Source of the DNA: Octopus sinensis
Taxonomy: Eukaryota
Assembly: GCF_006345805.1 (NCBI RefSeq)
Contig: NC_043008.1
Location: forward strand, 65,968,001-66,032,000
Reading direction: 5' to 3'
Length of the DNA: 64,000 bases
A program made the translations under genes and the position numbers. Under the pieces are notes generated by a model that was given only the letters and a program-made list of their open reading frames with translations, was not told where the DNA came from and ran no database searches. Every line of letters begins with the position of its first letter. Positions within the stretch are counted from its first letter, which is position 1. Of this stretch, positions 721-37,500 are shown one piece after another.

Positions 721-1120
721 AATATTAACGAGTATAACTCCAAACTTACAGGGAAAGATTCAGTTTAGTATTAAATCAAATTTCACAATATAAATATATC
801 AAATATAAATTAGAGATAAAACTACTATTATACTATTCAAACAATGATAGACATAAACCAAATCATAAATAACAAATAAAATATATTTTTATAAAACATA
901 TAACTAGATCACAAAAAGTATAAAAATGAATAATCAATATATAATAAGTAATAAGTAATACTTATTATATATTGATTATTATATATTATTATTCATTTTT
1001 ATACTTTTTGTGGTCTAGTTACATGTTTTATAAAAATATTTTTTATTTGTTATTTATGATTTGGTTTATGTCTATCATTGTTTGAATTGCATAACAGTGG
1101 TCTTATCTCTAATTTATATT
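721..1120. repeat. AT-rich fold-back element between (TA)n tracts
   Basis: Inverted arms at about 802-950 and 960-1120, with a left-only extension at 721-801. Confidence 0.85.
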
Positions 1121-1129
1121 ATATATATA

Positions 1130-31500: not shown

Positions 31501-34500
31501 GGCAAGCAGGTTCAGCATTCCACCACCACCACCACCACCGAAAGGCGGGCTGGAGCAACGTGAAGTGGTTTGCTCAAGAACACAATGTGCTGCTCACTCA
31601 GGGAAGCGAACCCACGATCTAGCGATCATGAGTGCAACAGTCTGCCACAAAGCCACCTGCCTTCACATTTCAAAACATGGTTTACAAAGTTTTGTAATAT
31701 AAACTACATACAAAATACGAAGCTTTCGATATGAAATACGTAGAAAAAAATTATTGAAAACTGAAATCGTACAACCATAATTGAAATGGTGAAAAAATAC
31801 TACTTTTCTAATTACATACTTGTATAAACATTTGCGCACCACATACTCACATATATATGTACATACATATAGGCGCAGGAGTGGCTGTGTGGTAAGTAGC
31901 TTGCTAACCAACCACATGGTTCTGGGTTCAGTCTCACTGCGTGGCATCTTGGGCAAGTGTCTTCTGCTACAGCCCCGGGCCGACCAATGCCTTGTGAGTG
32001 GATTGGTAGACGGAAACTGAAAGAAGCCCGTCGTATATATGTATATGTGTGTTGTGTGTCTGTGTTTGTCCCCCCAAATCGCTTGACAACCGATGCTGGT
32101 GTGTTTACGTCCCGTCACTTAGCGGTTCGGCAAAAGAGACCGATAGAATAAGTACTGGGCTTACAAAGAATAAGTCCCGGGGTCGATTTGCTCGACTAAA
32201 GGCGGTGCTCCAGCATGGCCGCAGTCAAATGACTGAAACAAGTAAAAAAAAAAAAAAAAAAGAGTATACATATGTATAGTAATACATCTTGATGTAAGGC
32301 CGATAATCGAAAATAGTTCGAAAATGTTTTTAAGGGAAGTAACTCTGGGCAAAGAGTTGTCGTTCTTAATAGTAACGTTATTATGTAATGGGAAACGGGA
32401 AGAGAACGGCAAAGAGGGAAAGGAAAAAAGAGAAGGATAAAATGGGGGAAAAAGTGGAAGAGAATGCAGAAAAAAATGAAGTGCCTAGAGAGAAGGTCGC
32501 TATGCTTGTAGCTTTCACAGGCCGTCCTGAGACCAGTGAGATTCATGTGGTTAATGATCTTGAAATTGTAAATGAATATCATCATCATCATCATCGTTTA
32601 ACGTCCATTCTCCATGCTAGCATGGGTTGGACGGTTCGACCGGGGATCTGGGAAGCCAGAAGGCTGCACCAGGCTCCGGTCTTATCTGGCAATGTTTCTA
32701 CAGCTGGATGCCCTTCCTAACGCCAACCACTCCATGAGTGTAGTGGGTGCTTTTTACGTGCCACCTGCACTGGTGCCAGGCGAGGCTGGCATCGGCCACG
32801 GTCGGATTGGTGCATTTTACGTGCCACCTGCACGGAAGCCAGTCGAGTGATATGAAAAACGGGCAGGGCAAGAATTCCAGAGGACTGGTATTTAAGAGAA
32901 GACGAATTTGACAAAGACATGGATGCAATATGGTTTATCAAAATATTCCAGCCGCACTAAAGTATGTGGTGCTGATAATAAACATATAAAAAAAAGGAAG
33001 AAAAACTTACCTGATAGGCAAGGTATGTGATCTGATGTTTGTTTCGAGATTTCTTGCTAGGGGCATCCTTATTTTTCTTGTAAGAATGTCTTGGCATTTC
33101 TTGAGTGAGTGTCTTTGTAAGTAACGATTTGTCAATGAAGTCATCAGCATTGACATTCATTAGTTGAATTTGTTCCTTGCCTCGTTGATTCTTGCCCTGC
33201 AAGCGTTGGAACTACAAAAGAAGAACAATCATAGAGAATGGTAACAGCAACGGCAGTGGCAGAGGTGTTATAACCAGTGGTACAGCTAGAGTACACTGCT
33301 CCTGGGGTAAGCCGCAAAAATGTTCCCCCCACCTTACAAAATCCACGATATTATATAGTACTTATTTGTTATAAGTAATTAATGTTTTAAAGCAATATTT
33401 TAGGAATAATTACTTTACCAGGGTTCATTTACCTGCCGGTTTGGTACAGCCTGTAATTCAAAATATATTTTTTGAATGTTTACTTCTACAAAACCTCCTT
33501 ATTTTAACCATTTTAATGCACCAGTATCCCCCCCCCCCATTGAAACATTAAAGAACCTAATGTGTGAAATGAGATATAATAAAAAAAATACAATTGTTTA
33601 AATTTCGTTTCTGGATTTGGCTTGCAAGATTCTTTATATGAGTTCGTGTGTTGAAGCATATTCTGTTGTGTCTGGGGAGAGTCATTTTCTTTTTGTACCT
33701 TATAATTTAACACACTCACCGGTGAAATTTCCACTTATTCCTTAATTTTATTTTCCTAAAATTTTCGTTGCGTCTTGCAATCTTTTAAATAGTCCTGAGT
33801 CAAGACTATTGAAAAGGTTGCAAGACGCAACAAAAATTTTAGGAAAATAAAATTAAGGAATAAGTGGAAATTTTACCGGTGAATGTGTTAAATTATAAGG
33901 CACAAAAAGAAAATACTCTCCCCAGACACAACAGAATTGTTTAAAGTCTCATCTTTCTTGCTTTTGATGAGGCGAATTGAGCGATTATATCTTCAAAATC
34001 AGTTTCATCTGTCTCTTCCCTTTCACTGCTCAGAAGAGTAAGATCATGCATGCAGTCCTGCAACATTGATGTCTGCAAATATGATAGGATTAACTTCAAC
34101 TTGCCGAACGATCGCAATTGATACAGTTATTGTGGGAAGTATCTGAAGGCCAATGCACAAATTCAGAAAAAAACATTATCTCCATATCGAACAATGCATT
34201 CCAGGAGTTTTTCTGGTTTCGTTATCACAGATTTTGTGATAACCGAGTGCAGAACCGAGTAGTCAATTCTGCACGCCCACTTCAATCAGCACCCTACCCC
34301 ACCTAGTTACACTACTGGTTATGGCAGAGGTGACAGCAGCACATACACATATATGTGTTCTAAGTTTCCATTTACCATTTTCCACACACAAGGAATGAGA
34401 TTACTTTTTTAAAAAAATTTATGTTGTATGTCTATAGCAGAATTTGAACTGATGACCTTTTAGATATTATTCTTTTACACGTTTCAACACAAACACTGTG

Positions 34501-37500
34501 GCCAATCTGAACTCAGAACATAATTACAGACAAAATGCCACTGAGCATTTTGGCCAGCATGCTAATGGTTCTGCCTGTTTGCTGCATAATCTCACAGACT
34601 TTGCAACCCACTCACTAAATATCATACAAATATTGATTTCTTAATTACATTGAAAGTCAATTATTGAAAGAAAGAGATGTAGCTGACTGCTTCAGTAGTA
34701 ATGGTATATAACTGGTATGTATTCTACATCATCAAGCTGGGTGATCCTAACCTTGTGGGCTAGTGGATGCTGGTGCCACATAAAAAGCACCTGTGCCTCT
34801 ACCATATAAAAGCAAAAAAGCAGCCATGCTGGTGCTGCATAAAAGCACCCAGTACACTCTGTAAAGTGGTTGGCATTAGGAGGGAATCCAGCAGAAGAAA
34901 CCATGACAAAACAGACATGAAGCACAGGTAGCTCTTCAGCTAGCCAGTGTCGGTCAAACTTTCCAACCCATGATAGCATGGAAAACAGACGTTTGATGGT
35001 GAAGAGGATGATAATGATTTGTTTCATCATCATCATCATCGTTTAACGTCCGTTTTCCATGCTAGCATGGGTTGGACGGTTCAACCGGGGTCTGGGAAGC
35101 CAGGAGGCTGCACCAGGCTCCAGTCTGATCTGGCAGTGTTTCTACAGCTGGATACCCTTCCTAACGCCAACCACTCCATGAGTGTAGTGGGTGCTTTTTA
35201 CGTGCCACCGGTACAGGGGCCAAAGGAGGCTGGCAAATTGCCACAATCTCTAGGAATTAATAAAATGAGACCAAATTGCTTCAGGTGGAATTTGAACCTG
35301 GGATCAAAAGGGATAAAATCCTAATAAACATGGCAAGACATTTCATAATCATTTGTGTTATATTTTCATTAACAAATATGTTTGTTATAAGAGCAACACA
35401 ATCACAATCACCACCTTACCTGTTCGTCCTGAAGAAGTGTGTCAATGTTCATAGATGGACCTCCAAGCTCAGTGTCATCATCAGGAGTTACTAAACTGTC
35501 CTGCTCTGGCTGTACTAATTCCTGCAAGACAAATGTGTGAAAACCATTAATCATGAATATTTAAGCATGAGTAGAAGAGACACTATGCATAATCTGCAGA
35601 GTGCTTCTTACAATAGAAGTGGGGTAGACAACTGAGTAATGTTGTTTTAAATTTAGAAACAAACAGCATGTGTTTTATTATTTACATTTAACAGATATTT
35701 GTCCTCATCTTGTTTGTTGTTAACACGTTTTGGCTGATATACCCTCCAGCCTTCATCAGGTATCTTGGGGAAATTTCAAACCTAGGTTCTCATTCCTAAG
35801 GTATTTTTCGATGTTGTTGTTGTTATTATTATTGTTATTATTTTTTATTATTATTAACCGCTACGCCATATGCCCATGGGCCTATGGCGTAGTGGTTAAG
35901 AGCGCGAGCTACTAACCCGAAGATTCCAAGTTCGATACCAGGCAGTGACCTGAATAATAATAATAATAATAATAACATTGAAAAATACCTTAGGAATGAG
36001 AACCCAGGTTCGAAATTTCCCCAAGACACACCTGATGAAGGCTGGAGGGTATATCAGCCAAGACATTGTGTTAACAACAAACAAAATGAGGACAAATATC
36101 CATCAAATGTAAATAAGGTACATAATTTCTCGTCCCTTAAATATAGAACTGTATTGGCATGTGTTTTGATAAGAATAATTCTGTTCTTATCAGGCCATGA
36201 GTGACAGATTTGGTGTTTGCAGATGATGAAGTGAAATGACACAGAAATATCCTATGAGCCAACAACATCATTTACAGCCCATCCTATGTTTTAACACATG
36301 CTGAAGATGAGATTCTCTCTCAGGACTATTACTGCAGTGATAGGTCTTCTCACAGTCAAGTGCACTTGAATGTGTTGAATACAACTTAACAAATATACAG
36401 AATGGTTGGTATCAAGAAGAGCATCCAGCCACACAAAAAAACTGTCAAAATGGACACAGTAGCCTAGTGTAGTTTTCTACCTGGCCAGCTCTTGTCAACC
36501 ATCCAACCTATGCATGCATGGAGCCATTCAAGAATTTGGATCTGGAGATCTCCATTTCCAGCGACTTCGAGGGCCACCTCCCAGTGGTGTCGGGCGTCAA
36601 CGAAGAGCCCTTGATTACAACAAGATGGCCAAAGTTGTTTTTTTCCACGGTCTGGGGTCTCCCACCCTTAAGCCCTAGACCATCAACTAATCACCCTTAC
36701 CCATCTTGTTGCTTAACAACAACAACAACTGCATGCGTGGAAGACCAGACATTAAATGATGATGATGATGACATGTGTATATATATGTGTGTGTGTGTAT
36801 GCATTGACACACACACACACATGCATATTTGTTTGAAAATTCATTTGAAGCATCACAAGCAAAATGGTGAGTTTAATAAAACCACATGGCAATGCAAGAG
36901 AGAAACAATATGGAATAAGATATGGTGTTACCAATAAGTAACACACAAAGATGTAGTAATTCTTCTTTTAATACTCCAACATTTTGGGATAAGAAATTTC
37001 TTCTTCAGGTTATATAAGAAGAGACTTCCAAGTCAGTTCATAATCAGCACAATCTGGTTATCAACTAATTCAGAGAACTCTTCTCACACTACAATTTTTT
37101 ATGTCCTGAAATACTGAAATATTAAAATTGGAATTTTAGACATTTCTGTATCTTTCTCCGTTATTTATTGTCACAATCATCTTTAATCTGTTTTTATTTC
37201 TCACTTGCATTGCCATACGGTTTTATTAAAACTCACAATTTTGCTCACATATGTATAGAGAGAGAGAGAAAGGGACAGATATACATATATCATCACCATC
37301 ATCATTTAACTTCCACTTTGATGATGATTATGTTGATGATAGTGTGTGAGAGAGAGAGGGGAGAGAGAGAGAAAGAGCAAAGTGGTGTGTTTGGGCATCT
37401 TTCAGTTCCTATCTACTAAATTCACTCAGACAAGGCTTTAGCTGGCCCAAGGCTTTAGAACAAGACATTTGTTAAGCAACAAGATGGGTAAGGGTGATTA

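Follow-up and report, generated by a model that had tools for sequence, protein, structure and literature searches.

What kind of event leaves a long hairpin with an extension on one side only? The question is raised by seven insertions in a 64,000-nucleotide stretch of the Octopus sinensis genome (assembly GCF_006345805.1, contig NC_043008.1, positions 65,968,001 to 66,032,000 of the forward strand), here called the window, in whose numbering window coordinates are given. An initial annotation of this DNA took all seven for non-coding passengers of a Penelope-like element (PLE), copied through fold-back priming by its reverse transcriptase (RT) and GIY-YIG endonuclease, and for a candidate new class. 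Comparison of sampled copies of their families in the 2.7 Gb host genome shows that the hairpin is not the element, each insertion consisting of two 5'-truncated copies of a linear unit placed head to head. The insertions are PLE-type and of a known kind, to which three testable additions are made: a strict pairing of 3' ends, a head resembling that of a short interspersed nuclear element (SINE) in family G, and a pile of 5' ends in family A.

Paired truncated copies of linear units

The insertions are labelled A (721), B (1610), C (2060), D (2798), E (26949), F (33603) and G (35677). All seven were recovered as inverted matches of 74.6-93.9% identity in a self-BLAST of the window, and BLAST among them found no similarity beyond chance (best E value 0.059), in line with the mutual dissimilarity first reported. 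They are all members of dispersed families, with first-look copy candidates numbering 2156 for A, 156 for B, 2339 for C, 2186 for D, 2436 for E, 3552 for F and 5725 for G, and with exact motif matches numbering 461 (A), 553 (C), 449 (E), 2566 (F) and 2099 (G), the reversed-motif control giving 0 matches for each of these five. Junction-blind samples, in which exact-motif matches are taken by genomic position, removing the query bias of best-match searches, comprised 48 of the 50 C matches on contig C1 and the first 30 matches each for A, E, F and G; matches of one insertion and duplicated loci were merged before insertions of C, E and F were counted.

Copy alignments place the joins at the 5' truncation points of the two copies, with a junction that varies from copy to copy; an impression of fixed junctions, gained from query-biased best-match searches, was overturned by the junction-blind samples. 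Adjacent inverted truncated copies were seen in the junction-blind samples of A, C, E, F and G and in the best-match sets of B and D. The inverted share was 25/38 insertions in C, 17/27 in E and 13/27 in F, while for G the 3' end of a partner was recognised in 8 of 28, and roughly five others had an inverted piece whose end was left uncalled. The remaining insertions are solos or partial tandems. Partial head-to-tail tandems were observed in C, D and E, defining monomers of 361 bp, ~462 bp and ~349 bp, respectively, and none occurred in the samples of A, B, F and G, one complex G locus excepted.

The 3' ends in each family land on two fixed sites, a distal one (the tailed end) and a proximal one (the tail-less end), and the one-sided extension is the stretch between them. 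Where both ends of an inverted insertion lie at defined sites, one distal end is paired with one proximal end in 19/19 cases for C, 15/16 for E, 12/13 for F and 7/8 for G, or 53 of 56 in these junction-blind samples pooled, the three exceptions being one proximal pair in E, one distal pair in F and one proximal pair in G. These tallies were made by hand; that of C includes one insertion (L268) scored separately from the main C script run, and end pairs with an interrupted or tandem-continuing end were left out (six in C, one in E). Because non-inverted copies use both ends about equally (8 distal and 6 proximal in C, 5 and 8 in F, 8 and 11 in G), independent choice of ends would give about half mixed pairs, and the binomial chance of at least 53 in 56, computed by hand, is about 4e-13. 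Copies with two distal ends do occur in the best-match sets. Family A follows the same trend, its AT-rich ends being too noisy for a count.

The same head-to-head pattern, with one end of each kind, is left by a protein-coding PLE of this genome. Four PLE families (PLE-1, PLE-2, PLE-3 and PLE-4) were used in comparisons. PLE-2, found by searching with a PLE endonuclease region that adjoins a C copy, is a young family (copies mostly 99-100% identical) with a 775-aa frame matching the Pfam families RVT_1 (E 2.4e-6) and GIY-YIG (E 2.7e-5); it has two 3' ends ~45 nt apart and inserts in TA runs. Taken as a positive control, it showed a distal-plus-proximal pair in 5/5 fetched inverted pairs, with the proximal arm longer in three. 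An F-ended pair that carries RT-like and GIY-YIG-like frames (L498) is likewise head to head, with one end of each kind. In one PLE-2 unit (L432, 1559-5785), a further frame, of 436 aa, extends over the beginning of the 775-aa RT/endonuclease frame.

In the window, the ends of E, F and G had been called right to the base, being flanked by exact target-site duplications (TSDs) of 13 bp (E, 26936-26948/27267-27279), 11 bp (F, 33592-33602/33935-33945) and 11 bp (G, 35666-35676/36157-36167); A, B, C and D, as first described, are located in AT-rich microsatellite. Among non-microsatellite hairpins of the families, TSDs of at least 10 bp were found in 9/18 for E, 19/25 for F and 18/25 for G, compared with 0/306, 16/600 and 6/600 in mismatched-flank controls. 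The one-sided extensions, annotated at about 40-150 nt, measure ~40 nt in G, ~41 nt in E, ~54 nt in C, ~57 nt in F, 70-80 nt in A, 80-95 nt in D and ~140 nt in B. The features are as follows.

721 to 1128: insertion A; tailed arm 721-960 on the minus strand and tail-less arm 963 to ~1128 on the plus strand, head to head
1600 to 2765: insertion B; tail-less arm ~1600-1873, minus, and tailed arm ~1900-2765, plus
1948 to 2029, plus: predicted type I hammerhead motif of B, CTGATGA core and palindromic stem III; minus-strand mirror core at 1817
2061 to 2496: insertion C; tailed arm 2061-2289, minus, and tail-less arm 2285-2496, plus
2285 to 2325, plus: predicted hammerhead motif of C, U3-A8 core variant TTGATAA; one substitution breaks stem I
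2798 to 3110: insertion D; tail-less arm 2798-2885, minus, and tailed arm 2884-3110, plus
26949 to 27266: insertion E; tailed arm 26949-27110, minus, and tail-less arm ~27133-27266, plus
33603 to 33934: insertion F; the tailed minus arm meets the tail-less plus arm near 33800
33806 to 33842, plus: minimal hammerhead-like motif of F, U3-A8 core and 3-bp stem I; G12 changed
35677 to 36156: insertion G; tail-less arm, minus, a short fold-back at the 5' end, and a full-length tailed copy 35873-36156, plus
35873 to 35950, plus: 5' head of G, in which A-box-like and B-box-like motifs were identified visually
36025 to 36075, plus: predicted minimal hammerhead motif of G, CTGATGA core at 36032, decayed; minus-strand mirror core at 35759
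59319 to 60415, minus: PLE-1 fragment, broken and internal, with the RT end and the GIY-YIG region

C is nested within B, whose window copy is interrupted by C and by a TATAT run, and the C arms are joined via a 5-nt overlap that corresponds to hammerhead stem I. An assembly artefact is unlikely, because the arms are 75-94% identical, TSDs are present, and contigs from three public runs contain joints, at many different positions across C and D (15 of the 39 joints shown); none of the contigs of these runs spans the window's own hairpins.

Further repeats were noted in the window. An inverted 213-bp pair (36507-36719 and 37469-37681) is 98.6% identical, with its members ~750 bp apart, and older self-inverted matches of 66-74% identity at 23615-24184, 34841-35198 and 36858-37245 are perhaps more hairpin insertions. 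A SINE-like repeat of ~430 bp with an internal TA/TG run, octopus-like in appearance, has many copies, including 1131-1560, 7791-8226, 16880-17261, 21150-21546, 27709-28117 and 31863-32278.

Hammerhead motifs and origins of the families

Four of the seven insertions had been said to carry hammerhead motifs. In the window copies a motif is recognisable in B, C, F and G, perhaps not the four originally meant, with a strict pass for the right arm of B only and point changes in C, F and G. The window copies of A and E are truncated just downstream of the unit's hammerhead, which in E is hence missing, both arms of A beginning just downstream of the predicted cleavage site; the junction of D lies just downstream of a partial hammerhead-like motif. 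In the families, hammerhead segments were located by anchors outside the ribozyme and then scored by a strict minimal-hammerhead descriptor (background of 0.15 matches per shuffled 64 kb, 20 shuffles), which passed 27/42 segments of C, 18/48 of F and 2/6 of A (three of the A segments being mis-anchored on unrelated DNA). Sequence matches to this descriptor thus give predicted hammerhead motifs in six of the seven units (A, B, C, E, F and G), which supports this part of the initial annotation. The U3-A8 core is kept in 41/42 C segments, and in E subfamilies stem I and the loop III palindrome change with pairing kept, as read by eye. A CTGATAG stretch in window E was rejected as a hammerhead core, as it varies freely among copies. 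No hammerhead was among the 150 best matches listed in an Rfam scan of the window, which were miRNA-like and other sub-threshold matches, and an earlier descriptor had no window matches because it allowed for neither the bulge, nor U3-A8, nor short stems.

In family A, 24 of 43 mapped 5' ends (a count that keeps duplicated loci) fall at reference positions 183-202, the predicted cleavage product beginning at 182; none falls at 70-182, 8 fall at or below 69, and 11 at 207-293. This pile suggests a template cleaved at the predicted hammerhead site, although it may instead reflect an RT stop at the adjacent U-tract. Many F copies (L320, L325, L329 and L339, near 1400) start ~44 nt upstream of where cleavage is predicted, and this fixed start may be a start site, a splice site or a processing site. 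More motifs that pass the descriptor, unrelated to A-G, lie in the flanks of eleven loci (L069, L110, L142, L160, L166, L172, L241, L290, L295, L299 and L372), hinting at more PLE-related families.

Judged by what adjoins the units, the families have mixed origins, A and F appearing to be the 3' ends of protein-coding PLE-like elements, C, D and E non-coding and retrozyme-like, and G SINE-like. The claim that all seven are non-coding passengers is not supported, as A and F continue upstream into GIY-YIG-like or RT- and GIY-YIG-like coding sequence. The window copy of F corresponds to the 3' terminal repeat of a PLE-like element in which a CA-rich region and then RT-like and GIY-YIG-like frames lie upstream (L498; weak Pfam match to RVT_1, E 0.031, and tblastn matches to PLE-1 and PLE-2). 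Upstream of A lies ~2.3 kb of AT-rich DNA and then, on the same strand, a decayed region (L500, L499) that we take to be GIY-YIG-like, by eye, with no Pfam match; asparagine-rich stretches surround it (L499 3700-4700, L500 5090-5950). The B unit is AT-rich and exceeds 2 kb, an upstream walk of more than 2 kb meeting no coding frame; its 3' part is what the window copy represents. C, D and E are self-contained non-coding tandem monomers of 349-462 bp.

In the G unit (~280-300 bp), the fixed 5' head bears box-like motifs; an (AAT)n run and a minimal hammerhead are also present, and the unit terminates at either of two fixed 3' sites after the hammerhead, with no 3' tail of the type left by long interspersed nuclear elements (LINEs). 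The A-box-like and B-box-like motifs are putative, having been identified by eye; in the head, ARAGORN found 0 tRNA genes and Rfam no tRNA match at E<=10. A PLE coding region was attached upstream of G in 0/60 loci, and no RT/GIY-YIG coding region was found upstream of B, C, D, E or G.

The Penelope link of the initial annotation is thus upheld by the end pairing common to the hairpins and PLE-2 and by the PLE-like coding sequence into which A and F run. The Penelope-like element that it listed at 59180-60418 is indeed present, as the PLE-1 fragment; a role for it as the driver is not supported. PLE-1 (13,396 candidates, 1009-aa frame; window fragment at 80.5% identity with a copy that has a long frame and matches RT and GIY-YIG) has inverted copies in 0/36 loci and has no sequence in common with A-G, and was rejected as driver on these grounds; the window fragment is a bystander, nothing found indicating that PLE-1 drives A-G. 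Some loci bring C together with PLE sequence. In a complex TA-flanked insertion (L022 2056-3444; L209 3429-5177), antisense C lies with a 5'-truncated PLE-1, a join that possibly records two different RNAs copied in one event. At L236 (3114-3429), a 234-bp PLE-1 fragment replaces part of the C tail, with short microhomologies; RT template switching was rejected, and the fragment, 99% identical to a copy ~2 kb away versus 79-85% to others, is likely a local templated insertion. C copies beside PLE-2 ends (L401, L402) were rejected as a partnership, being tail-to-tail neighbours in TA runs.

Routes to a hairpin with one tail

Both arms of one insertion have the same source in C, A, E and F. The divergence between own arms is lower than that across insertions (0.028/0.063 in C, 0.046/0.084 in A, 0.056/0.121 in E, 0.056/0.070 in F), and minority variants common to both arms exceed all 200 re-pairings in each of these families. 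Overlaps of 2-6 nt occur at the C junctions in 16 of 25 rows (a BLAST estimate, one duplicate included), those of E, F and A more often contain short insertions, and the G 5' end is a small native hairpin, often with a fold-back of 20-25 nt. The proximal arm is the longer one in 7 of 12 simple C hairpins (the distal arm in four, with one equal) and in 7 of 10 F hairpins, and in one insertion each of C (L280) and E (L400) the distal arm is only tail sequence, absent from the proximal arm, the two arms being non-overlapping.

We consider it probable that the hairpins are made by a PLE-like RT/GIY-YIG enzyme, with one complementary DNA (cDNA) primed per target strand and the two joined mid-way. 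Nicks would be made by the enzyme in both strands of an AT-rich target, each nick priming one cDNA and both cDNAs being copied off the same RNA or source locus; the cDNA begun at the distal site would carry the tail, and its partner would begin at the proximal site. The two cDNAs would stop at varying points, their ends being joined via a few complementary or inserted bases, and the staggered nicks would leave a TSD of ~10-15 bp. Two kinds of template may be used. For C, D, E and the SINE-like G these would be short hammerhead RNAs without coding capacity, which likely rely on an enzyme encoded elsewhere; for A, F and perhaps B they would be RNAs from the 3' ends of protein-coding PLEs, the usual template of A likely being the hammerhead 3' cleavage product. 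A PLE protein has been reported to nick and extend both strands in vitro, with two RT start sites defining the tail (PMC11167929). A fuller version, in which twin priming is coordinated, with the enzyme halves committed to different RNA start sites, in which G is a SINE-like passenger transcribed by RNA polymerase III (Pol III) alongside retrozyme-like passengers, and in which the A pile records hammerhead cleavage in vivo, is put forward tentatively.

Several results weigh against priming from both strands by a PLE enzyme or against parts of its evidence. The start site in vitro was not different between strands (PMC11167929), so the distal-plus-proximal pairing is not explained by that study. 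C, D, E and G have no similarity beyond chance to PLE-1, -2, -3 or -4, the four families of the genome that the partner search covered, and a single C copy (L022) stands head to head with a PLE-1 copy, with no TSD. The arms of G show no excess of private variants (23 versus a control maximum of 24; divergence 0.100/0.105). B and D are represented by sets of best matches to the window copy and have no junction-blind set. Six end calls in E and F were reclassified by eye, E ends after sequence reading (BLAST stops at 333-335 to distal, at 295-298 to proximal) and two F ends likewise (401 to proximal, 457 to distal). Descriptor passes are low in B (5/26), G (4/51) and E (2/17, two of the E segments being mis-anchored on unrelated DNA), D passes in 0/19 with a partial motif only, and in C and E the 5' ends are not concentrated at the predicted cleavage sites.

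Another PLE-based route would have one cDNA fold back or jump template to give a symmetric two-tailed intermediate, from which the endonuclease trims one tail at integration. It would directly yield one tailed and one tail-less end and arms that share private variants, it fits the short fold-back at the G 5' end, and PMC8557442 suggests that the tail arises from endonuclease-mediated resolution; it also requires a first cDNA that is unanchored, whereas extension in vitro is target-primed, on both strands and from two RNA start sites, and solo copies end at either site. We therefore regard it as rather unlikely. Simple fold-back self-priming of one target-primed cDNA, the mechanism first proposed, has in its favour the long self-complementary stem of C that holds the window copy's junction and the ~20-25 nt fold-back at the G 5' end, the latter being the one site at which the proposal holds. 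Under it, however, the tailed copy should always contain the loop and the longer arm, with the short arm inside the long one. Because the proximal arm is often longer and some arms are non-overlapping, single-cDNA fold-back is not supported as the general route, and the C loop is found in both orientations; contradicted for most copies and possible for a minority with a longer tailed arm, it is very unlikely as the explanation of these insertions.

A LINE enzyme that uses twin priming might instead move C, D, E and G, their PLE resemblance being convergent. This view could draw on the lack of an identified PLE partner for these four families and on the SINE-like head of G, but the pair of fixed 3' ends, the absence of a poly(A) tail, the partial tandems and the minimal hammerheads match published PLE features (PMC8557442, PMC4209133, PMC8969392) and PLE-2 of this genome, leaving this route a very slight probability. 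Fixed hairpin elements moved as DNA, whether miniature inverted-repeat transposable elements (MITEs) or foldback transposons, would account for the length of the inverted arms and for the many copies, but neither arm length nor junction is constant from copy to copy, inversion is lacking in many copies, TSDs differ in length, the ends are asymmetric rather than fixed, symmetric terminal inverted repeats, and PLE-like coding sequence lies upstream in A and F. The junction-blind samples refute this for A, C, E, F and G, in agreement with the initial argument against MITEs, and overall it has next to no probability. Priming of one cDNA on each target strand by a PLE-like enzyme is thus the preferred reading.

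Relation to known systems

The proposed new class is not upheld, as both the architecture and non-autonomous hammerhead-bearing PLE derivatives are already in print (PMC8557442, PMC11167929, PMC4209133, PMC3846280; bioRxiv 10.64898/2026.07.22.740005): an inverted copy, a tail, a TSD and opposite-strand minimal hammerhead pairs have all been published. How the inverted copies and one-sided tails of PLEs form is named an open question in PMC8557442, and in the one in vitro study RNA-seq gave no sign of hammerhead cleavage (PMC11167929). A statement of the distal-plus-proximal rule, a SINE-like PLE passenger and genomic evidence of PLE-hammerhead cleavage were not found in the open literature, subscription papers, Dfam and Repbase being outside the scope; this novelty may be touched by Fig. 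S2 of PMC11167929 and by the repeat library of PMC13282606.

The short abundant families supply many whole integration events for counting, and the rule of one distal plus one proximal end is testable with the existing PLE assay. In annotation, such hairpins, in their thousands, could be mistaken for MITEs or microRNA precursors, and, if transcribed, they would supply double-stranded RNA.

G resembles tRNA-derived SINEs in its length of ~300 bp, its fixed 5' end and its A-box-like and B-box-like motifs. G differs from them in its PLE-type end, with a hammerhead, two 3' sites and an inverted partner, and with no LINE-type tail.

Endonuclease-bearing PLEs (PMC3846280, PMC8557442, PMC11167929) share with the octopus families 5' truncation, partial tandems, an inverted truncated neighbour, a one-sided tail that is the stretch between two RT start sites, a terminal-repeat hammerhead, and TSDs (8-10 bp in rotifer cases) or (TA)n targets. 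The tails are ~40-140 nt here compared with 30-40 nt in the published elements, and most copies here are so short that the insertion is a hairpin of 250-500 bp. The asparagine-rich stretches of the long form of A recall the N-rich inserts of rotifer Penelopes (PMC3846280). The minimal PLE hammerheads of PMC4209133 have the same palindromic stem III, bulge after A9 and, as in C and F, U3-A8, and the B, F and G hairpins form opposite-strand hammerhead pairs like those described there, 100-700 bp apart; unlike them, A and B have long stem II inserts, and the 5' ends of A cluster where cleavage is predicted.

A PLE-type insertion structure is also known from other short, non-coding elements, such as the non-autonomous MRC1 of Chlamys (PMC8557442) and short non-autonomous Penelope elements of Heliconius (PMC6685494). 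The Chlamys passengers generally have 3' ends common to autonomous families, whereas none such was found for C, D, E and G. Non-LTR retrozymes, which have been proposed as non-autonomous PLE derivatives (PMC7229834; bioRxiv 10.64898/2026.07.22.740005), are like C, E and probably D in being head-to-tail non-coding monomers, those of C (361 bp) and E (~349 bp) having a predicted type I hammerhead and the tandem of D (~462 bp) a motif that fails the descriptor; C, D and E showed no homology to a PLE terminal repeat in the four PLE families compared. Published retrozymes are defined by tandem arrays and circular RNA, while the octopus families, seen here in genomic DNA alone, are mostly dispersed inverted or solo insertions with PLE-type ends.

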